Positions 11,601-37,641 of a DNA stretch of 64,000 nt are shown here, piece by piece. The stretch comes from Pseudomonadota bacterium (GTDB lineage Bacteria; Pseudomonadota; Alphaproteobacteria; Rhizobiales; Hyphomicrobiaceae). The number at the start of each line of letters is the position of its first letter. Within the stretch, counting starts at the first letter, position 1. A model generated the notes under the pieces. That model was not told the DNA's origin and ran no database searches. It was given only the letters and a program-made list of their open reading frames with translations. The translations under genes and the position numbers were made by a program. The stretch spans positions 30,885-94,884 of the forward strand of contig JBCBRH010000009.1 in NCBI GenBank assembly GCA_039819785.1, given 5' to 3'.

Positions 11601-12638
11601 ATGGCCACCATGACACAATCCACAAATAGCGTTTGCGACATAAGCGGCATTGCCGTTGGTCATGCCCACGATGCGGCGATGGGTAGCGGAGTGACCGTGC
11701 TCCTGCCGGATGCCCCAGCCGTTGCCGCCGTCGACATTCGCGGTGGTGCACCAGGCACCCGTGAAACAGATGCCATCTCCGGCCGCGGCATCGTGGAACA
11801 CGTCCACGGGTTGGTGCTATCGGGCGGGTCGGCATTTGGCTTGAGTGCGGCTTCGGCGGTGCAGCAATTCCTGGCGCAGCAGGGCCGTGGGTTTGAAATC
11901 GCCGGCCTCCATGTCCCGATCGTGCCCCAGGCCATTTTATTCGATCTGCTTGTCGGTGATCGCGCGACCTCGCAAGACCCGATGCAGTATTTCGAGTTGG
12001 CAAAGGCCGCGTGCCAAAACGCTGGAGCCGACAAAGCCGAATGCGGGAACTGGGGCGCAGGCTTTGGTGCCACAACCGCCAATCTGCGCGGAGGGCTGGG
12101 CACCGCGTCCTACCGTTTGCACTGCGGTAGAACGATAGCAGCCATTGTCGCTGTCAATGCGCTCGGCTCCGTGACGATGGGAAAGACCGCACACTTTTGG
12201 GCGCACCCCTTGGAACGAAGCAACGAATTCGGTGGGCTCAGCGCTCCAAACGCCTGGAACGCGGAAGAAGATGCGACATCCGATCTCAAGGGTGCTCACG
12301 ATGATCGCGACGTCCCCATCAACACAACAATCGGCGCCGTTGTAACTGACGCTGCACTCGGCCAACAATCGTGTCAGCGCATCGCGGCCATGGCGCATAC
12401 CGGGCTGGCCCGGGCAATTCACCCTGTCCACACACCGCTGGATGGGGACACGATTTTCGCAATGGCCACCGGCACCCAGCCGGCACCTTCAAGCGCCCAC
12501 GATCTAGCGCGGTTGGGCGCAGCAGGGGCTGATTGTATGTCTCGGGCCGTGGCACGGGCAATTTACAGCGCAGCGCCAACCCCTGCAGGATGGGACGCCC
12601 CGCCCTCATATGCTGAGCGCTACGGTCACGGTGATTGA
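11601..12638 (+). CDS. P1/S58 family peptidase (DmpA/BapA-type aminopeptidase)
   Basis: SGIAVGHAHD, LSGGSAFGL and NTTIGAVVTDAAL match the DmpA/Ntn self-processing family. The start is placed at the ATG giving MATMTQSTN...; the track ORF begins at 11493. Confidence 0.8.
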   Translation: MATMTQSTNSVCDISGIAVGHAHDAAMGSGVTVLLPDAPAVAAVDIRGGAPGTRETDAISGRGIVEHVHGLVLSGGSAFGLSAASAVQQFLAQQGRGFEIAGLHVPIVPQAILFDLLVGDRATSQDPMQYFELAKAACQNAGADKAECGNWGAGFGATTANLRGGLGTASYRLHCGRTIAAIVAVNALGSVTMGKTAHFWAHPLERSNEFGGLSAPNAWNAEEDATSDLKGAHDDRDVPINTTIGAVVTDAALGQQSCQRIAAMAHTGLARAIHPVHTPLDGDTIFAMATGTQPAPSSAHDLARLGAAGADCMSRAVARAIYSAAPTPAGWDAPPSYAERYGHGD

Positions 12639-29919: not shown

Positions 29920-30726
29920 CTACGGCACTTCATCAGCCCAGACGCGAAAGCTCTCAAGGGTGTTTGGGCCGAATGTTGTCACCATGGCCACGTCGGCAGC
30001 ATCGCGCCCACGCGCAATGAGAATACGCCCAGCCCGCAGCGTATTGTTACGCGGATCAAACGTGATCCACCGTCCGTCGAGATAGGCTTCGAACCACGCC
30101 GCAAAGTCGCCGGGGGGATAGGGCTTCGGCGTCCCCACATCACTGAGATAGCCCGTGCAATAGCGGGCCGGTATGTTAAGGGCGCGGCAAAAGGCGACCG
30201 CGAGGTGCGCGTAGTCCCGGCAAACACCGACACCTTCTTCATAGGCCTCGGCAGCCGTTCGTGTCGGGCGCGCCTGCAGATAATCGAACGCGATATGCTC
30301 GTGGACAAAGTCGCAGATCGCGCGGACGCGGCCCAGACCCGGCTCAGCCTTGCCAAACAGCTCCCAGCTCATGTCGAGCATCTTGTCGCTCTCGCAAAAA
30401 CGGCTGGCGAGCAGAAAAAGGACAGCATCATTGGGCAGGTCTTCGACAGGAACCTGCCCCGCCTTCTGCGGTACGGGATCAGCAAGCCCGGTATCACGGA
30501 TCGTAGTATCACTGGAAATAACAACACGACCGGCTGGCGCAACCACGCGGCTACACCAGTTACCGAAGTGGTCGCGGTAACCATCGACAAGCGACGTTGG
30601 CTGCATGACAATGTGATCAGCGCCGATAAGATCGCTGACGCGTGAATGATGGACATTCAGCATCAAAAGGCACGGTGTAGGATTGGCAAACTGATAGGTG
30701 AACTCGTAGCCGATCTGAAGATGCAT
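29920..30726 (-). CDS. Transglutaminase-like cysteine peptidase family protein
   Basis: 268 aa. GVCRDYAHLAVAFCRALNIPARYCTGY (catalytic Cys context), then the FAAWFEAYLDGRWITFDP region typical of the family. Confidence 0.8.
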   Translation of the reverse strand: MHLQIGYEFTYQFANPTPCLLMLNVHHSRVSDLIGADHIVMQPTSLVDGYRDHFGNWCSRVVAPAGRVVISSDTTIRDTGLADPVPQKAGQVPVEDLPNDAVLFLLASRFCESDKMLDMSWELFGKAEPGLGRVRAICDFVHEHIAFDYLQARPTRTAAEAYEEGVGVCRDYAHLAVAFCRALNIPARYCTGYLSDVGTPKPYPPGDFAAWFEAYLDGRWITFDPRNNTLRAGRILIARGRDAADVAMVTTFGPNTLESFRVWADEVP

Positions 30727-30942
30727 GGCGTGACCTCGCTTTCAAGCGACGACCAAAATCATCCTCGCGCGCTCAGGCGTAGCACATTGCGCTCATGATC
30801 TGGAGCGGAATAGGCACGGAGTAGGGATCGCACGCCGCCCGTCGATCCACCCACCGATGCAGCGGGCAACCAGACGCCCTGAAAGCGCCAGCAACCGTCG
30901 CACCCTACGAGGACTGGCATCGTCCAGAACGACAATCGCTCT

Positions 30943-31503
30943 TTATTCGCTTTTCGATTTGCTCTTGGCTTGAAAGTCGCGTTGCTGATCAAGAACATAG
31001 AGCGTGAGTGCTGCAAGCTCGGGCGTCTGCCACCCCAGTGGTTCGGAATCCATAGTCACGACGAGACATAGCTGAACCATCTCATCGGCGGTCACCTGAT
31101 CCATCCCCGCACGCTTCGCAGCCATGCCAACCGCATGCGGGTAGGGCTCCAAGAAAGTCTTTTCATACGCCTCGTATTTGAAATGGCAAGACTTGCATGT
31201 CAGGCCATTCTCACTGAGCTTCAGGCTATCAAACAGCTTCTCGCCCTGTTTCAAGGCGGCCGCCTGATCGCTCAGTTCAATCAGGTTTGACCCACTGGGC
31301 CGCGTCACGGTGGCCGGGTCGACCTTCTTGCCTGCAGCCATCAAAGGCGTTGTGACCAGGCCAAACCATAAGCCGCCAATCACTGCCACAAATGCATATA
31401 CGCCCGCACCGAGATACGCAGGCCGTTTACGCTCGGCACTTTTGTTTAAGGCATTTAGCGCTTTAGCACCGTGCCTCGTGGCACGCATTGTCTGAGCACG
31501 CAT
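30943..31503 (-). CDS. Membrane-anchored mono-haem c-type cytochrome
   Basis: One TM helix (GAGVYAFVAVIGGLWFGLVTTPLMAA) and a single CKSCH haem-binding motif. The ATG at 31503 has AGGA 7 nt upstream; the track ORF starts at a GTG at 31554. Confidence 0.55.
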   Translation of the reverse strand: MRAQTMRATRHGAKALNALNKSAERKRPAYLGAGVYAFVAVIGGLWFGLVTTPLMAAGKKVDPATVTRPSGSNLIELSDQAAALKQGEKLFDSLKLSENGLTCKSCHFKYEAYEKTFLEPYPHAVGMAAKRAGMDQVTADEMVQLCLVVTMDSEPLGWQTPELAALTLYVLDQQRDFQAKSKSKSE

Positions 31504-31584
31504 GGTCGGGTCCTGATCACAAAGGTCTGCTGAAGAAAAAGTCCGGGAAGACACGCCAACGACGTTGTCGGAAAAGGGCGCGTC

Positions 31585-32049
31585 TTAACCGAACATGCGC
31601 GCGAAGAACCCTTTCTTCTCAGCAGGCGGTGTTGCAGCGACGACTTCATCGGCAGCCGCCGTCATAACGCCCTGGAGTGTCGTGTAAGTCGTGACCCAGG
31701 CCTCTTTGACATCCGGCGTGAAATCATCGCCGAGACCCTTTTCGAGCGTATAGATCAAGGCTTCACCGACGGGCTTGTACTGCTCGTTTGTGACACCGTA
31801 CCCAACGTGCTTGCGCCCAAGGTCTTGGACAGCGGGAATGATCGTATCGACTTGATGCAGGCTACCAACAGCAGTACCCAGCATTGCCATCAGCTTGCCG
31901 CCTTGCTCACTCATGTCCTCTGGAAACATGGGGCGGACCTCGGGTGCGATTTCGAACAACCGCGTATAGAAAATATCGGCAGCCTGTGGCGCGATTGGAA
32001 CGACCTTTTGAAAGCTGTCCTGCACCAGTTTGACCTGTTCGGGCGTCAT
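31585..32049 (-). CDS. Single-domain globin (sensor/protoglobin-like), cytoplasmic
   Basis: MTPEQVKLVQDSFQKVVPIAPQAADIFYTRLFEIAPEVRPMF... and ...LGRKHVGYGV (proximal His context). No signal peptide. Strong GAGGAGG RBS. Confidence 0.75.
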   Translation of the reverse strand: MTPEQVKLVQDSFQKVVPIAPQAADIFYTRLFEIAPEVRPMFPEDMSEQGGKLMAMLGTAVGSLHQVDTIIPAVQDLGRKHVGYGVTNEQYKPVGEALIYTLEKGLGDDFTPDVKEAWVTTYTTLQGVMTAAADEVVAATPPAEKKGFFARMFG

Positions 32050-32139
32050 GATGACCTCCTCATCTTTTTGAAAAATTCGTTTCAGATCACGAAGCGTTCA
32101 CTGCGGGAAAGCCTGACGCCTTCCCGCAGTTTTGAGTGC

Positions 32140-32721
32140 TCAGTTCACCATTGGAATGCGGATCACAACGCCGCCCATGACATCACCGACTTTGAAGTCT
32201 GTACGTGGTGTGTCTTTGTGGTTGTTGTGGCAGCTGGCGCAGACTTTTGCGACGGCGACATCGGCGTACACGGCTGTGAAGTACTTGGTTCCACCAAGCG
32301 TTTCTTCGCCGTAATAGTTTTCACCTTTGTTGTCGTTGACGAATTTCAGGCCAGCTTTTTCAACATCGGTGCGTGGTGCGTTCTGCTTGTTGATCGGCCA
32401 CAGTGACTGCAGTGAGTAGCTGAACTTGTCCGTCTTGTCGGCCACGTGCTCGGCACCGAAACGGAACATCTGTGCTGGCAGCGGCAGAGCCGAATCATCG
32501 TCGAAGTGCTCGGAAGCCTTGATGACTTTCTCTTTCGCAGCCAGGCGCTGAACCACTTTTTTGGTATAGACCGTCCGGTCTGCAACCATGACCGCAATCA
32601 GCATGTCGGCAACGTCTTTGTACTCGACACCCTTCGCCGTCACGTTCGCAACCGCACCACCAGCCAGCACCGTGCCGGCGGCAAGTGCCGAAACCATAAG
32701 TGTCTTTGTCAGCTTCATCAT
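32140..32721 (-). CDS. Secreted DUF3365 (Tll0287-like) haem c protein
   Basis: Signal peptide, SLWPINKQNAPRTDVEKAGLKF... and a single C-terminal CASCH motif, as in the DUF3365 PAS-like haem family. GGAG RBS. Confidence 0.65.
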   Translation of the reverse strand: MMKLTKTLMVSALAAGTVLAGGAVANVTAKGVEYKDVADMLIAVMVADRTVYTKKVVQRLAAKEKVIKASEHFDDDSALPLPAQMFRFGAEHVADKTDKFSYSLQSLWPINKQNAPRTDVEKAGLKFVNDNKGENYYGEETLGGTKYFTAVYADVAVAKVCASCHNNHKDTPRTDFKVGDVMGGVVIRIPMVN

Positions 32722-32769
32722 TTTCGAACTTCTCCATCTTGTTGAACTTGGATCTTCAGCGCGCTGGCT

Positions 32770-34191
32770 TTACTTTGCCCCTCGGTCCTTGAGGCGCTTC
32801 ATGACCCAGTCGATGCTTTCGATATGAGCAGAGGGGCGCCCATCGAAATTCTTTTTCACGAGTTCTTTGTCGGCCAACGCATCAATCGCGAAGCCCAACC
32901 CGTGGCAGTCCATGCAGACACTGCGGATCATCTTTTCGTTCGGCCGCAGGTTTGCGTTTTGGTTGTGATTGGTGACGAGGACTTCGTCATATCCCGTCTC
33001 GTCCTCCATCCAGGTGCGCGGCATATGGCAGGTGGCGCAGCTCACTCCGCTGCCCTTCGGCGCCGTGCCGGCCGCTTCGGCCTGGAACAATTTGTGATGC
33101 TTGGAGCCTTCGTAGGCTTTGGTATGATCATCGTCATGACAGGACATGCACGACGTCACCTTTGCCTCTGCGGTGTCGAACGTGTGCGCGCTATGGCAGC
33201 TGTTACATGTCAGCTCGGTATGAGGTTCGATCTTGGATTGCATCGGCAGTCGCGCCAATTCAGTCCGCATTGGTGGAAGCGCTTTTTCACGGAAGATACC
33301 AAACGGACCTGCCGTTTGACTACGCATGCCCTCAGCGAGCCGCATGCCGTGCTTGCCCTTCAGCCATGTCGCCGTCTCTTGCGCATGACAGCTGGCACAC
33401 GATGTATGATCAGGCTTAGTCACCCAGTTGGCCTTGATGTCTTCGGCTGTCTTCTGCTCTGGGGCATGGCATCCCGAACAATTGACGCCTGCTTCTGCAT
33501 GGGAAGTGGCAAGCCATTGCGACATGACCTTTTCATCACCTGAATGAGCTGCTGGTGCATCGGCCTGAGCCGCAGTAGTCAACGGTTCGCCGACAGGTTC
33601 GAATTCGATCTCCTGGCGGGCAACGAGCTTCACAAGCGGCTTTTCTTTCAGCTCCGGTTTGGTCGCATGCTTTTCGAGGAAGTCTTCGTAAAGGGCGGTG
33701 TTGTCATGATAATTGTGACAGCCAGCGGTGGCGCAGGTCGCAAATGAAAGATCCTTGTGGCTGGGCCGGTTCTTCCCGACATCCTCATGGCACAGCGCGC
33801 AGTAGTCCTCGGGAAGCGTCACCCCCATGGCATGCGTCACGTCCGGCTTATGTTCGGTATGACAGGTGATGCACTTCGTGGCCTCCAGCTTTTCGAGCCG
33901 GTCGGCATTGCGCGGGTCACGGAACTTCTTGATGGGATGAGAATCTTTCGAAGCCGCCAAGTCGGCGGCATGACACCCATGGCAGGTTTTCTCGATCACC
34001 TCGGGCCCACCAAACGCTGTTGTGTGGCAGGCGCTGCAGGCCAGCTCAATCTGGTGATGCCCGCTCGTCGTCTCTCCGATCAACAGCATGGCGCGGCTGG
34101 GCCCGCCAAACAGCATACCGGCCATAAGCACACTCCCGCCGCTGACCGTCATAACGATCCAAAGAAGCCAGAGTTTTGTCGTGCGCGTCAT
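32770..34191 (-). CDS. Membrane-anchored multihaem (11 sites) c-type cytochrome
   Basis: N-terminal hydrophobic anchor. Ten CxxCH motifs (CSACH, CHGCH, CITCH, CALCH, CSGCH, CASCH, CNSCH, CMSCH, CATCH, CMDCH) plus one CX4CH (CATAGCH). The GAGG RBS overlaps the upstream stop codon. Confidence 0.85.
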   Translation of the reverse strand: MTRTTKLWLLWIVMTVSGGSVLMAGMLFGGPSRAMLLIGETTSGHHQIELACSACHTTAFGGPEVIEKTCHGCHAADLAASKDSHPIKKFRDPRNADRLEKLEATKCITCHTEHKPDVTHAMGVTLPEDYCALCHEDVGKNRPSHKDLSFATCATAGCHNYHDNTALYEDFLEKHATKPELKEKPLVKLVARQEIEFEPVGEPLTTAAQADAPAAHSGDEKVMSQWLATSHAEAGVNCSGCHAPEQKTAEDIKANWVTKPDHTSCASCHAQETATWLKGKHGMRLAEGMRSQTAGPFGIFREKALPPMRTELARLPMQSKIEPHTELTCNSCHSAHTFDTAEAKVTSCMSCHDDDHTKAYEGSKHHKLFQAEAAGTAPKGSGVSCATCHMPRTWMEDETGYDEVLVTNHNQNANLRPNEKMIRSVCMDCHGLGFAIDALADKELVKKNFDGRPSAHIESIDWVMKRLKDRGAK

Positions 34192-34200
34192 TCACGTGCC

Positions 34201-36282
34201 TCAGTAGAAATAAACGGTCAGGATGTGAACGGCCAGAAGTGGCGGCAGCGGCCAGAACGCGATGAGGTGCATCCAGAAAGATGCTGTCCTCAGTCGCGCG
34301 GCACTCTGCGGGGCATCAAACACACGGTGTTCCAGCGCGGTCGCAGCTCCCGCAACGGCACCGGCCAACGCCAACCCCAGAAACGACAGCATCAGCCACA
34401 TGTTGAGATTTGACCCGAGCCTGAAACCGGTGTGCGCAAACAGGGCAACCAACGCGATAACCCCGATCGCCGTATGTGCCGTGCGCCAGCTTGAGAAACT
34501 CCCAAGCTTTGTGAAAGACAATCGCTTGCGCAATGACAGCACGGCAGCCAGGACCGACAACGCCAAAAGCGTGTAACCGCTCACCTGTTTGGTGTAACTA
34601 TCCAGGAACAACAGATCGGCCCAACTGCGCTCATCGATTGCAACAGCTGTCGGAACAGCTGGAGAAAACAGCGTGATCGCGGCAGCCAGCGCGGTGAGAA
34701 CAGACAGCAACGTGAGTGTCCGCCACCAAGCGACGGGTTCACGCGGCACGGGCGCTTCAAGCAACTCGCCGATGTGGATTTTACAAGTCCCGCAGACGGT
34801 CGATGCGCCTGTATCCCGCTTGACGTCATCCAGGCTGACAGCGCCCACAGCGATACAGTCACCGATCTGCCCTCGCGTCACACCGGTGCAATTGCACACC
34901 GTTGCGGTACGCGGCCAATCCTTGACGCTCTTGGGTTCGGTTTTCGGCCAAACGAGTCCCGTTGTCGCGAACCGCCGCGCCTGCCAGGGATAAATCACAC
35001 CACCGGATTTGACTGTCTCCTGAATGCGCGCAAGTTCGGTCCAGTCCCCCAGTGCGATGGCTCCGACAAGTCGATATCGCTTGAACACGAGACGGCGATA
35101 AATCCCGTTGACCTCATCTTCGAACACAACGCTATTCAGGTCCCGGCGCTGGTCCAGCTGCTCAACATCGCCCGTGCTGAAAACATCGGTCCCGACGATC
35201 TTGAGTTTCGTTGCCAGCACTGACCCGCCGTAGGCCGCTTTGCCTTCAGGCCGCCGGTCCGTGATGTGCTGAACAGCCGCGATGGCCTGCTCAAAGCCAG
35301 GCCCGACCAAACCGTAAATCTGGTCTTCAAATTCGGCGCATTCCCCGACTGCATAGATATTGGGATCGCTGGTCAGAAGAGTGTGATCGACTTTAATGCC
35401 ACGACCAACCGCAAGTCCGATGTCGCGTGCCATCTCCATGTTGGGACGAATCCCAGTGCAGATGATGGCCGTGTCGCAAATAACTGGGTCCCGGCCAGCC
35501 AGCTCGATCGCCTCGAGCCGGGTCTGGCCCGTAAATGCGGTAACCCGCGTCCCCGTCAGAACATGCAGCCCCATCTTTTCGACGGCTGCCTTCAGACCAT
35601 CCCCACCAGCGCGATCAAGCTGACGCGCCATCAGGTGATCTTCATGTTCGATGACGTAGGTCTCAACGCCCCGATCCGCCATTCCGCGGGCAGCTTCCAG
35701 GCCCAGAAGGCCACCACCGACAACAACGCATTGGCGTGAGCGGAATGAGCGTGCGAGTAACTTCTCGACATCATCGAAATTACGGAATGTGAATACGCCG
35801 TCGAGATCTCTGCCCTCAATCGGCGGCACGTGCGCGCGCGATCCCGTCGCGATGATCAGCTTGTCGTAAGTAAACTGACGACCGCGATTTGTGGTGACGG
35901 ATTTTCGCTCGCGATCGATGTCGACGATACTCGTGTTGGAGTAGAGCGATACCTTTCCATCGCCTGGAAATTCCAGCGACTGTTCAACCTGACCGAGTTG
36001 CACATCGCCGCTCAACAGCGGTGTCAGCTTTACGCGGTTATAAGGTTTCCACCGCTCGGCATTGAACAAAACGACATCGCACCCGGCACGGGACAACTCC
36101 TGCGCAGCACGAATACCAACAGGTCCACCACCGATAACGATGACCGGTGCAACAACTTCGACCGTTTCACTCGACGTATCAGCTGAAGCGTCACTGTAAT
36201 CGTCTGCTGGGGCAACAACGTCGCTGCGCTCCGCGACAGGGTCCACGTCGGCGAGCGGTCGCTCCAATAGGTTCACGGTCAT
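34201..36282 (-). CDS. NirB-like FAD/NAD(P)H oxidoreductase fused to a BFD-type [2Fe-2S] module and a C-terminal bis-His membrane domain
   Basis: VIVIGGGPVGIRAA and CVVVGGGLLGLEAA dinucleotide folds, AVGECAEF, C-x-C...C-x2-C (CNCTGV...CGTCK), then about 5 TM helices containing two H-x13-H pairs. Start placed at the ATG at 36282; the track ORF runs to 36408. Confidence 0.8.
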   Translation of the reverse strand: MTVNLLERPLADVDPVAERSDVVAPADDYSDASADTSSETVEVVAPVIVIGGGPVGIRAAQELSRAGCDVVLFNAERWKPYNRVKLTPLLSGDVQLGQVEQSLEFPGDGKVSLYSNTSIVDIDRERKSVTTNRGRQFTYDKLIIATGSRAHVPPIEGRDLDGVFTFRNFDDVEKLLARSFRSRQCVVVGGGLLGLEAARGMADRGVETYVIEHEDHLMARQLDRAGGDGLKAAVEKMGLHVLTGTRVTAFTGQTRLEAIELAGRDPVICDTAIICTGIRPNMEMARDIGLAVGRGIKVDHTLLTSDPNIYAVGECAEFEDQIYGLVGPGFEQAIAAVQHITDRRPEGKAAYGGSVLATKLKIVGTDVFSTGDVEQLDQRRDLNSVVFEDEVNGIYRRLVFKRYRLVGAIALGDWTELARIQETVKSGGVIYPWQARRFATTGLVWPKTEPKSVKDWPRTATVCNCTGVTRGQIGDCIAVGAVSLDDVKRDTGASTVCGTCKIHIGELLEAPVPREPVAWWRTLTLLSVLTALAAAITLFSPAVPTAVAIDERSWADLLFLDSYTKQVSGYTLLALSVLAAVLSLRKRLSFTKLGSFSSWRTAHTAIGVIALVALFAHTGFRLGSNLNMWLMLSFLGLALAGAVAGAATALEHRVFDAPQSAARLRTASFWMHLIAFWPLPPLLAVHILTVYFY

Positions 36283-36547
36283 TGGCCACCGCGCACATCT
36301 AGGAGCGTGCGTCGAGAATAATAACTCTTGGAAAGTGTAAGTGGGACTGCAGTCATTCCGCCTCCAACCATAAAGCCAACGCATCGATGTCAGCGCACGC
36401 ACGGGCATGAGAGCCTGAGTACGCGGGCGCTTTTAATCAGCGTGTTAGGTTTTGGCGGCGTTGCCAGTGTTCAGCCCAACATTGGGCCACACATGAGCGC
36501 AGTAGCGAAGCGCTGCACATTCTCGTATGGCGAAAATCGTGCCAGTT

Positions 36548-36593
36548 TTGATTAACCGATTTTAATCAGTGAAATCATTGGACTAACCAATGG
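36548..36593. promoter_or_regulatory. Two inverted repeats in the AT-rich region upstream of the haem/flavin operon
   Basis: TGATTAA-ccgatt-TTAATCA (36549-36568) and CATTGG-actaa-CCAATG (36576-36592). They lie between the methyltransferase stop (36730) and the flavoprotein start (36282). Confidence 0.35.
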
Positions 36594-36729
36594 TTCGTTG
36601 TGGTTGAAACACATTTGACCGCGCGAGAAATAAGCAGAATCTGGCAGTGAATGATTGGATTTTGTGCGGCTGCATAATAGAGCTTCCCCGTTGGTCGGAG
36701 AAAAGTTCAGAGTCGGTCAACCGCTCAAC

Positions 36730-37641
36730 CTAAGGCGAACTGACCGTCGTTCGCTCAACAACGAGCTTATTCACCGGCATCGAAAAACGGCTCCTTCCTG
36801 CTGAGCCTTGGCCGGCGAAGAAAGCCTCTAGGTCTTCCAGCATCTGCTGGTGAAATTCCGGCGACAACACAAACGAAGCATAGAAAAATCCTGCAGCCTC
36901 GCGTGCCAGAACATCAGATGTTGCGCTCAGCCTGAGAACGGCCGGTTTGATTCTGACTTCATCACCAGCAAAGGAAGCAGCAGCAAGCGCCATCAGAGCC
37001 TGTGCCGTCCGAACGCGCCGATCTCCAAGATCAATGGCGCCGTAGTCCGGATACTCCCTTTGAACGGCGCGATAGATAAGGTCGTGGATATCAGCATATC
37101 CAGGCGCGGTTGAAGCATCGCCGTCTACAATCGCGGCAAAGACCCCACCGGGCTTGAGCACGCGTTTGACTTCAGCGAGCACAAGAGGAACGTCATCCAT
37201 CAGCGTCAACGCCCAATGGCACAGCACCACATCAATGCTGGCATCGGCAATGAACGGCAAGCTCTGGGCCACACCCTCATGTAAACCGATACTGGCATCC
37301 GGCAGCCGAGCGCGCGCAAGCGCAAGTTCCTCGGCGCTCATATCGACACCCATGAGTTTCAGGCGCGATCCAAAGCGTTGATCACAGATCTCGAGAAGCA
37401 CGCCGCTACCACACCCAAGGTCCAAAACGGTTTGATGTCTTTCGGGATCAATACAGTCCGCCAGCAACTCATAGCTGTTGCGCCCCTCGTGATCCCGGCA
37501 TTGCGACGCGCATGATTCCGTAAAACCCGCATTGTCGCGATGGACCGCTTTGAGATGGTCACACAGGTTCTCATGCGATGGCTGCTCACCACGCCGCAGA
37601 CTTTGCGTCCAGCGGGTGTCGATATTCGGTCTTTCGTTCAT
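36730..37641 (-). CDS. Class I SAM-dependent methyltransferase
   Basis: Motif I VLDLGCGSG, post-I MGVDMS, motif II/III DVVLCHWAL...LKPGGVF. Confidence 0.75.
   Translation of the reverse strand: MNERPNIDTRWTQSLRRGEQPSHENLCDHLKAVHRDNAGFTESCASQCRDHEGRNSYELLADCIDPERHQTVLDLGCGSGVLLEICDQRFGSRLKLMGVDMSAEELALARARLPDASIGLHEGVAQSLPFIADASIDVVLCHWALTLMDDVPLVLAEVKRVLKPGGVFAAIVDGDASTAPGYADIHDLIYRAVQREYPDYGAIDLGDRRVRTAQALMALAAASFAGDEVRIKPAVLRLSATSDVLAREAAGFFYASFVLSPEFHQQMLEDLEAFFAGQGSAGRSRFSMPVNKLVVERTTVSSP

Follow-up and report, generated by a model that had tools for sequence, protein, structure and literature searches.

A haem and flavin gene unit on a Hyphomicrobiaceae contig

The DNA analysed here, called the window at its full length of 64,000 nt, comes from a Pseudomonadota bacterium of the family Hyphomicrobiaceae (GenBank assembly GCA_039819785.1, contig JBCBRH010000009.1, positions 30,885 to 94,884 of the forward strand). 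It carries on the minus strand five closely spaced genes for haem and flavin proteins, with a sigma-54 type promoter and a structured leader upstream (Table 1). In order, the products are a flavoprotein fused to a putative cytochrome b membrane domain, a membrane-anchored c-type cytochrome with 11 haem motifs, a secreted DUF3365/Tll0287-like protein, a cytoplasmic globin and a membrane-anchored mono-haem cytochrome c. An earlier reading of the sequence (the original prediction) had described these genes as one operon encoding an electron conduit from NAD(P)H to the periplasm, and all five open reading frames (ORFs) were found at the coordinates and with the spacing given there. The intergenic gaps are 9, 48, 90 and 81 bp, the last one being reduced to 30 bp if the GTG at 31554 starts the mono-haem cytochrome c gene. 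A GAGG just before the ATG of the multihaem gene overlaps the TGA stop codon of the flavoprotein gene, in agreement with the overlapping ribosome-binding site previously proposed. A longer ORF for the flavoprotein could begin at an in-frame ATG at 36408; its orthologues start near 36282.

The domain identities previously assigned to the products agreed with our Pfam and NCBIfam matches, for the fifth protein by a sub-threshold match only. The genes flanking the unit are unrelated and code for methyltransferases, a major facilitator superfamily transporter, a PhyH-family protein and a transglutaminase-like protein. Two absences on which the original prediction had laid weight were also confirmed, since neither the unit nor the adjoining genes encode NapC/NrfH, bc1, molybdopterin, copper or sirohaem proteins, and no outer-membrane porin-cytochrome partner was found in the flanks of the related loci examined.

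Table 1. Genes, protein regions and upstream elements of the unit (window coordinates).
Feature	Position	Strand	Details
Flavoprotein-cytochrome b fusion	34201-36282	(-)	693 aa
Membrane-anchored 11-haem cytochrome c	32770-34191	(-)	473 aa
Secreted single-haem DUF3365/Tll0287-like (sCache_heme) protein	32140-32721	(-)	193 aa, Pfam
Cytoplasmic single-domain globin, flavohaemoglobin lineage	31585-32049	(-)	154 aa, Pfam Globin
Membrane-anchored mono-haem cytochrome c	30943-31503/31554	(-)	likely start ATG 31503
NirB-type FAD/NAD(P)H module of the flavoprotein	about 35269-36144	(-)	Pyr_redox_2, 203 bits
Rubredoxin_C-type domain of the flavoprotein	35002-35214	(-)	69.8 bits
BFD [2Fe-2S] domain of the flavoprotein	34756-34902	(-)	Fer2_BFD, 45.8 bits
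Putative di-haem b membrane domain, DUF4405-like	34204-34740	(-)	residues 515-693, five transmembrane helices
H603 of the flavoprotein	34474-34476	(-)	predicted ligand, cytoplasmic-side haem
H672 of the flavoprotein	34267-34269	(-)	predicted ligand, cytoplasmic-side haem
H617 of the flavoprotein	34432-34434	(-)	predicted ligand, periplasmic-side haem
H686 of the flavoprotein	34225-34227	(-)	predicted ligand, periplasmic-side haem
Sigma-54 type -24/-12 promoter, TGGCACGATTTTCGC	36530-36544	(-)	GG/GC 10 nt apart
ANTAR (NasT-type) target-like dual hairpin	36453-36488	(-)	two hexaloops, A at position 1, G at 4
Hairpin P1, GGCCC-AATGTT-GGGCT	36473-36488	(-)	loop AATGTT
Hairpin P2, TGGC-AACGCC-GCCA	36453-36466	(-)	loop AACGCC

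Four of the five genes are conserved together

A scan of one genome per species yielded 80 related loci, analysed with 8-kb flanks and designated here by L numbers, which span Hyphomicrobiaceae, Methyloligellaceae, Xanthobacteraceae, Rhodospirillales, Rhodobacterales, Acuticoccus, Roseibium and several Gammaproteobacteria; the nearest relatives are found in Filomicrobium (Hyphomicrobiaceae), at 62-73% identity. The order flavoprotein, multihaem protein, DUF3365 protein, globin is kept in 74 of the 80 loci, in both Alpha- and Gammaproteobacteria, and of the six exceptions three lie at a contig end, one is N-masked, one has the globin gene upstream and one lacks it. Furthermore, the multihaem gene starts 9-20 bp after the flavoprotein gene in essentially every locus. 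The fifth gene, for the mono-haem cytochrome c, recurs in L003 alone and was for this reason rejected as a core component. The conserved unit is therefore made of four genes, with the fifth as a lineage-specific accessory: the first four genes of the previously proposed five-gene operon behave as one unit, and the fifth is outside the conserved system. L072 was considered as a minimal two-gene variant and rejected because stretches of masked N break up the locus.

Across the loci the DUF3365 protein is the best conserved member of the unit (56-88% identity). Relatives of the flavoprotein number in the thousands; the best 120 share 51-74% identity with it, almost all have 640-740 amino acids, and they are named in the databases only as 'FAD-dependent oxidoreductase' or 'nitrite reductase large subunit'. 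A curated family name for the cassette was not found.

The flavoprotein joins a NirB-type dehydrogenase to a putative di-haem cytochrome b

The N-terminal part of the flavoprotein consists of a NirB-type module for flavin adenine dinucleotide (FAD) and NAD(P)H, a Rubredoxin_C-type domain and a BFD domain. Against the NirB model TIGR02374 the protein scored 389.7 bits with a cut-off of 578.35, and the match covers only model positions 2-469 of 794; the NIR_SIR sirohaem/[4Fe-4S] domain gave no Pfam match in the flavoprotein. The catalytic half of NirB is replaced by the membrane domain, and the flavoprotein alone cannot be a nitrite reductase. The BFD cysteines, arranged as CxC...CxxC (C463, C465, C497 and C500), are invariant in the orthologues, and those with the same architecture have 640-690 amino acids. 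An acidic residue closes the NAD-binding strand (VIEHE), a hint that NADH is preferred. The AlphaFold model of the flavoprotein reached a predicted local distance difference test score (pLDDT) of 72, and its top Foldseek matches were ferredoxin/rubredoxin reductases only.

The C-terminal 179 residues form five hydrophobic helices and contain two histidine pairs, H603/H617 on transmembrane helix 3 (TM3) and H672/H686 on TM5, both with the spacing Hx13H. Conservation of these pairs had been set beforehand as a test of the original prediction, and all four histidines proved to be invariant in 20 full-length orthologues and in 25 divergent homologues of the domain (35-60% identity); a fifth histidine of the domain, H652, is not conserved. 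The loops TM2-3 and TM4-5 are rich in lysine and arginine, suggesting that the N-terminus and the BFD domain of the flavoprotein are cytoplasmic. One haem would then be located near each face of the membrane.

When the 25 members of the domain family were compared with Pfam, weak matches were obtained to DUF4405 (12 members, best E 6.3e-5), to Ni_hydr_CYTB, that is, prokaryotic cytochrome b561 (six members, 7.7e-4), and to Ferric_reduct (three members, 4.8e-4). Together with the membrane domain of NOX, these three families make up part of one di-haem superfamily. The unit had been described earlier as NOX/ferric-reductase logic built from unrelated parts, which was overstated in view of these matches. 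The membrane domain is best regarded as a putative divergent DUF4405-like di-haem cytochrome b, and haem b binding has been demonstrated for a distant member of DUF4405, for which a part in transmembrane electron transfer was suggested (PMC11334425).

By an exhaustive search, 605 representative clusters were found to hold the membrane domain, which in almost all cases makes up the C-terminal part of flavoproteins of about 640-690 amino acids; the shorter proteins that carry it look like gene fragments. The BFD and membrane domains are also found, outside the window, behind FNR-type dehydrogenases (FAD_binding_6 and NAD_binding_1) in P0170 and P0224, which suggests that the membrane domain has been repeatedly wired to NAD(P)H oxidation. 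P0170 (951 amino acids) has a pair of EF-hands and P0224 (1013 amino acids) has three cNMP-binding domains; both look like bacterial proteins with NOX5-like regulatory logic in which the domain order is reversed.

The multihaem protein has features of an electron wire

The multihaem protein has an N-terminal transmembrane helix, ten CXXCH motifs and one CX4CH motif. The haem motifs are distributed over a five-haem N-domain, which holds the CX4CH, and a six-haem C-domain, and all 11 of them are conserved among the orthologues. Over 76 orthologues exactly 11 histidines outside the motifs are invariant, five in the N-domain (H45, H85, H114, H145 and H162) and six in the C-domain (H231, H281, H336, H356, H365 and H409); neither CXXCK nor any other atypical catalytic haem motif was found in the protein. 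This match of 11 candidate distal histidines to 11 haems, together with the lack of CXXCK, argues for an electron wire.

Similarity to known multihaem enzymes was local. The score against Cytochrom_C552 was 23.9 bits, just under the cut-off of 24.1 and over a local region only, and the matches to NrfA and octahaem nitrite reductases among the PDB sequences (E 5e-9 for NrfA with the family profile) involved local haem pairs in permuted order. The match to NrfH (TIGR03153; 16.5 bits, cut-off 134.2) falls at residues 221-250, outside the N-terminal domain, and that to DmsE (TIGR03508; 42 bits, cut-off 192.2) covers residues 215-281 only; the remaining matches were to generic multihaem models, besides local MtrC/MtrF-like and DmsE-like ones. 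An orthologue of NrfA, ONR, Otr, Hao, NapC, DmsE or NrfH was therefore rejected as the identity of this protein, given the sub-cut-off or local matches and the lack of CXXCK; orthology to an Otr/ONR/Hao/NrfA-like family had been named beforehand as a finding that would speak against the original prediction. Some databases label its homologues 'NrfA' or 'nitrite reductase'.

The DUF3365 protein and the globin belong to haem families linked to nitric oxide

The DUF3365 protein matches PF11845 (Tll0287-like) with 74.6 bits, against a gathering score of 24.1. The residues of its C-terminal CXXCH (C161, C164 and H165) are invariant, and no cysteine is present outside this motif, so that the axial cysteine of the Tll0287-type redox subclass is absent. 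M85, in LPLPAQMFR, and H168 are invariant in the orthologues and are candidates for the sixth haem ligand. A profile of the DUF3365 protein gave nothing meaningful against the PDB sequences. A 2026 preprint has re-defined the DUF3365 family as haem-c Cache domains, named sCache_heme, and reported that a Cys-less member forms a stable complex of Fe(II) with nitric oxide (NO).

The globin matches Pfam Globin with 61 bits, whereas it reached 68 bits, over positions 6-141 only, against the NO-inducible flavohaemoprotein model NF009805, which has a cut-off of 432. It has no fused reductase. The closest solved structures were 3WFW, 3S1I and 3UBC, followed by neuroglobin, Vitreoscilla haemoglobin and flavohaemoglobin. 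Y28, which corresponds to B10 by alignment to Hmp, and the proximal H81 are invariant in 75 orthologues. As judged from these similarities, the globin is a flavohaemoglobin-lineage protein of the single-domain type (Bjgb/Vgb/Cgb-like). At its C-terminus (window 31585-31650) it has a 25-residue extension with an amphipathic-looking tail, KKGFFARMFG, which is not conserved among the orthologues and is thus probably not essential.

A sigma-54 promoter and an ANTAR-type leader precede the unit

The sigma-54 type promoter of the window corresponds to invariant columns in an alignment of 18 leader sequences. We scanned the upstream regions of 79 related loci with a strict motif, TGGCAY-N5-TYGC, which was present in 38 of them, at a density of 0.69/kb compared to 0.0095/kb elsewhere in the same loci, a 72-fold difference; with a relaxed motif, the number of upstream regions rose to 52.

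Downstream of the promoter, the comparison of loci identified a leader element that resembles the RNA targets of ANTAR proteins such as NasT. These targets consist of two tandem hairpins of at least 3 bp, with hexaloops bearing A1 and G4 and a short linker between them (PMC3369931), and in the window the hairpins P1 and P2 are separated by 6 nt. In the alignment of the 18 leaders 97.9% of the cells are paired, compared to 24-49% with slid partners, and compensatory changes are seen in P1. Of the 79 loci, 49 have homologous dual hairpins upstream, about ninefold over background. An Rfam scan of 30500-37200 at E<=1 matched no family, the leader element of the window included.

In about 14 loci (for example L023, L053, L070 and L080) there is an intrinsic terminator that overlaps P2 at its 3' arm. 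In the leaders of L023, L053, L054, L070, L074, L080 and others a strong terminator with a U-run takes its 5' arm from the loop and 3' arm of P2, as in L023 with AACGGCGCCTTGC...GCAAGGCGCCGTTTTCATTTT. These leaders are textbook cases of ANTAR antitermination.

Immediately next to the -24 element, at 36549-36568 (-), lies a perfect palindrome of the 7-6-7 type, TGATTAA-N6-TTAATCA; some 120 nt further downstream, around 36441 in the leader, the decamer CTGATTAAAA occurs again. The palindrome may be a site for an activator, for IHF or for a repressor.

The cassette adjoins nitrate-assimilation genes

About a quarter of the loci lie beside or inside nasTS, nrtABC or nirB clusters. Among the genes adjoining the cassette in the 80 loci we counted nasT (Response_reg and ANTAR) 19 times, nasS (NMT1_2) 24 times, nrtA 24 times, nrtB 19 times, nrtCD nine times and a full nirB four times. 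The order nasT-nasS-[cassette]-nirB was found in L038, L044 and L048, and the true NirB of L044 scored 914 bits against TIGR02374. Promoter, leader and neighbours together are the regulatory pattern of nitrate-assimilation operons, and the sigma-54 promoter with the ANTAR/NasT-type leader suggests that the operon belongs to a nitrogen regulon responsive to nitrate and nitrite. The original prediction had mentioned neither these regulatory elements nor the neighbouring genes of the related loci.

A related arrangement has been described in Bradyrhizobium, where the NasT-controlled narK-bjgb-flp-nasC operon encodes a NirB-N-terminal-type flavoprotein, Flp, and the single-domain globin Bjgb; Flp is required for nitrate assimilation, may give electrons to NasC and, jointly with Bjgb, gives protection from the NO that arises as a by-product (PMC4724949). 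In Bradyrhizobium the control by NasT extends to nap and nos, two gene sets of periplasmic denitrification (PMC6759348).

Two other kinds of neighbour were observed. The gene hemA, for 5-aminolevulinate synthase, directly follows the globin gene in L037, L053, L054, L055 and L075 (657 bits for L075), a position that fits the haem demand of the unit, which we estimate at about 15 haems per protein set. In Rhodobacterales (L076, 13143-17672, and the flanks of L062, L067 and L069) the cassette adjoins transporter genes of the urea/branched-chain type of ATP-binding cassette (ABC) systems, with UrtB/D/E-like matches under the cut-offs and a substrate-binding protein labelled 'urea carboxylase-associated' (533 bits). 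The setting is again one of nitrogen acquisition, although sigma-54 motifs are mostly missing from it.

A proposed path from NAD(P)H to the periplasm and its alternatives

There is good support for the cassette being a conserved unit and a member of the nitrate regulon, and an electron path through its products is plausible. The reading we favour, in which we place about half of our confidence, is that the unit forms a quinone-independent conduit from NAD(P)H to the periplasm within the nitrate/nitrite regulon, most likely serving to remove reactive N-oxides. Electrons would pass from NAD(P)H, probably NADH, through FAD and the BFD [2Fe-2S] cluster to the cytoplasmic-side haem b (H603/H672), and from there through the periplasmic-side haem b (H617/H686) to the 11-haem bis-His cytochrome c anchored beside the flavoprotein; the wire would pass them on to the secreted Cys-less sCache_heme protein and/or, in some lineages, to a mono-haem cytochrome c. 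On a side branch, the flavoprotein could plausibly keep the cytoplasmic globin reduced, in the way that Bjgb of Bradyrhizobium is served by Flp. Expression would be driven by the sigma-54 promoter and gated by the ANTAR/NasT-type leader, and the most likely purpose would be the reductive removal of reactive N-oxides arising from nitrate and nitrite metabolism. NO would be the main target, with nitrite or hydroxylamine as possible others, and the task would be divided between the globin on the cytoplasmic side and the multihaem/sCache_heme pair on the periplasmic side.

Because negative charge would move outward, such a path would dissipate energy and not conserve it, which points to detoxification instead of respiration. 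Removal of N-oxides on both sides of the membrane is suggested by the two NO-type haem proteins, by the nitrate/nitrite regulation and by NirBD, which is sometimes encoded alongside. The original prediction had contained a hint at N-oxide chemistry, which is strongly reinforced by the sigma-54 promoter, the ANTAR leader, the nasTS/nrt/nirB neighbours and the binding of NO by a Cys-less DUF3365 protein. As for the conduit from NAD(P)H to the multihaem protein that it had proposed, the gene unit, the histidine pairs and the features of a wire stood, while cofactor binding (haem b included), the direction and path of the electrons, the complex of flavoprotein and multihaem protein and the substrate are what we infer from them. 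Flow in the opposite direction, from periplasmic donors to NAD+, was rejected on the reasoning that it would be uphill in redox potential and against the membrane potential.

Several points weigh against the proposed conduit. The membrane domain of the window had no Pfam match at E<=10, and the profile of its family found no relative among the PDB sequences, with one spurious match to a transporter. The AlphaFold model of the multihaem protein was poor (pLDDT 55, predicted template modelling score 0.31), and an all bis-His electron wire is the simplest reading of this protein, judged by the count of its invariant histidines alone. In the 2026 preprint the member that binds NO is of the signalling type, while a stand-alone Cys/His member is a redox protein that does not bind NO. 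In addition, sigma-54/NasT control fits assimilation equally as well as detoxification. In the lineage of the window the cassette has no nas genes beside it, and no canonical terminator is evident after P2. The window itself contains no homologues of nasS, nasT, nrt or nirB, though promoter and leader are kept, and in its leader a weak terminator-like site at 36375-36394 lies clear of P2. Our literature searches found no paper describing the cassette.

A bolder version of the proposal, which we put forward tentatively and regard as rather doubtful, would make the Cys-less sCache_heme protein the catalyst, namely a new periplasmic reductase of NO (or of nitrite or hydroxylamine) fed by the flavocytochrome b-11-haem complex. 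With the globin it would provide detoxification in two compartments under the NtrC/NasT nitrate-assimilation regulon, and the cassette would represent a widespread, undescribed class of NOX-like systems.

The regulatory evidence can also be turned towards assimilation. A sigma-54 promoter with an ANTAR leader is the classical signature of nas operons, the cassette occurs within nasTS...nirB or nrtABC clusters, and the multihaem protein has both local haem-pair motifs of the NrfA/ONR kind and homologues bearing the corresponding database names; accordingly, the multihaem protein, or the sCache_heme protein fed by it, might be an NAD(P)H-driven periplasmic assimilatory reductase that converts nitrite, NO or hydroxylamine to ammonium with NrfA-like chemistry. 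We consider this unlikely, as the 11 invariant histidines suffice for six-coordination of all haems, with no CXXCK or atypical haem among them, as the complete NirB encoded right after the globin in L038, L044 and L048 already covers nitrite reduction in the cytoplasm, and as the globin would be left unexplained. A low probability is likewise given to an NADH:cytochrome c bypass, independent of quinone and bc1, which would feed cNOR, NirS/NirK, NosZ or cytochrome c peroxidase encoded elsewhere, for example when NO inhibits the chain. The repeated recruitment of mono-haem cytochromes (class-I in 18 loci, the anchored type in the window and L003), the appearance of the multihaem protein as a pure wire and the control of nap and nos by Bradyrhizobium NasT (PMC6759348) are in line with a bypass; nevertheless the strictly conserved partner is the sCache_heme protein and not a classical cytochrome c, and no terminal enzyme co-occurs within the 8-kb flanks.

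The flavoprotein might instead act in the cytoplasm only, as a Flp-like reductase for the globin and/or for an assimilatory nitrate reductase, the helices being an anchor and the periplasmic haem proteins an independent, co-transcribed sensor or redox buffer. Both roles known for Bradyrhizobium Flp, in nitrate assimilation and, with Bjgb, in protection from NO, are indeed cytoplasmic, and the missing Pfam match of the window's membrane domain would be in keeping with a simple anchor. A mere anchor, however, would not be expected to retain four invariant histidines in an Hx13H/Hx13H arrangement across 35-60% identity, nor to recur in fusion with other NAD(P)H dehydrogenases, and the gene for the membrane-anchored multihaem protein follows within 9-20 bp in essentially every locus, which makes this explanation very unlikely in our opinion. 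Finally, we think it highly improbable that the unit is a reductase of the FRE/FoxB type, acting on ferric iron or other metals in the periplasm or outside the cell, possibly on siderophore-bound Fe(III), to meet the iron and haem demand of nitrate assimilation. Its NOX/FRE-like logic, a multihaem wire typical of metal reducers (with the local MtrC/MtrF-like and DmsE-like matches) and the hemA gene that adjoins the cassette in five loci would agree with such an activity, but neither an outer-membrane porin-cytochrome partner nor a setting of siderophore, TonB or Fur-type genes was seen in the flanks, the regulation is of the nitrogen/nitrate and not of the iron type, and the globin and the NO-type haem sensor fold would remain without explanation.

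Comparison with known electron-transfer systems

To our knowledge, nearly all known electron routes to the bacterial periplasm start from quinols, and the only direct NAD(P)H-driven export known to us is that of NOX/FRE-type enzymes, the MsrQ-Fre pair and thiol pathways. With the NOX/FRE enzymes, as represented by SpNOX and the cyanobacterial NOX5 and as they are generally described, the predicted flavocytochrome b would share a cytoplasmic NAD(P)H flavoenzyme fused to a bis-His domain for two haems b, histidine pairs about 13 residues apart on two helices, and a quinone-free, outward, energy-dissipating export; some relatives of the membrane domain weakly match Ferric_reduct, and others carry EF-hand and FNR-like modules, like NOX5. 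In contrast, the dehydrogenase here is NirB-type Pyr_redox_2 with a BFD [2Fe-2S] domain and is N-terminal, whereas that of NOX is FNR-type and C-terminal, five helices are present instead of six, and the acceptor would be an 11-haem cytochrome c instead of O2 or Fe(III). P0170 and P0224 do have FAD_binding_6 and NAD_binding_1, yet N-terminal to the membrane domain.

The DUF4405, MsrQ and PepSY_TM proteins are di-haem b membrane proteins that pass cytoplasmic electrons to periplasmic partners, and among the Pfam entries it is DUF4405 that comes closest to the domain family; MsrQ works with the cytosolic flavin reductase Fre and feeds the periplasmic MsrP. Unlike in these systems, the dehydrogenase is covalently fused here, the transmembrane helices are five and not six, and the predicted partners have c-type haems, instead of being flavinylated or molybdenum enzymes. 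No apbE or other flavinylation genes turned up in the cassette flanks.

NirB resembles the flavoprotein over its N-terminal 470 residues (FAD/NADH, Rubredoxin_C-type and BFD), the nas-like regulation is common to both, and a true nirB is sometimes part of the same operon, whereas the sirohaem/[4Fe-4S] half of NirB is exchanged here for a membrane cytochrome b domain. The combination of a NirB-N-terminal-type flavoprotein with a single-domain globin under nas-type (NasS-NasT) control is shared with Flp-Bjgb of Bradyrhizobium. Flp is soluble, however, and its operon is not described as encoding a multihaem or DUF3365 partner; the cassette would add a transmembrane and periplasmic branch. NrfA, the octahaem nitrite reductases and NrfH-NapC are, like the multihaem protein, periplasmic multihaem c-type cytochromes, with a role in the metabolism of nitrogen oxides, and local haem-pair matches exist between them and it; the protein studied here differs from them in having 11 haems (5+6), in lacking CXXCK and in the permuted order of the matching segments. 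No quinol dehydrogenase of the NapC/NrfH type is present, and the donor would be the fused NAD(P)H flavocytochrome b.

If the proposed conduit were correct, a nitrate-regulated flavocytochrome b feeding an 11-haem wire would constitute a new entry point into periplasmic redox chemistry and an unrecognised part of the nitrate-assimilation/nitrosative-stress regulon in numerous Alpha- and Gammaproteobacteria of soils and the sea. Three families of 'unknown function' would at the same time acquire a physiological role, namely the DUF4405-like domain, the stand-alone sCache_heme/DUF3365 proteins and the 11-haem family, and the cassette would offer a compact genetic module by which cytoplasmic reducing power could be wired to periplasmic or electrode-facing haems.

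Accessory mono-haem cytochromes

The mono-haem cytochrome c of the window has a single CKSCH motif and a weak, sub-threshold match of the SoxA/TsdA type. In 18 other loci (L037, L042, L053-L055, L058-L060, L062, L064-L067, L069 and L075-L078) a different secreted class-I cytochrome c, with Cytochrome_CBB3/Cytochrom_C Pfam matches, is encoded between the DUF3365 and globin genes, around 12000-12600 in the loci with 8-kb flanks. The cytochrome that follows the globin in the window and the one found in these 18 loci look like independent recruitments of a mono-haem partner.

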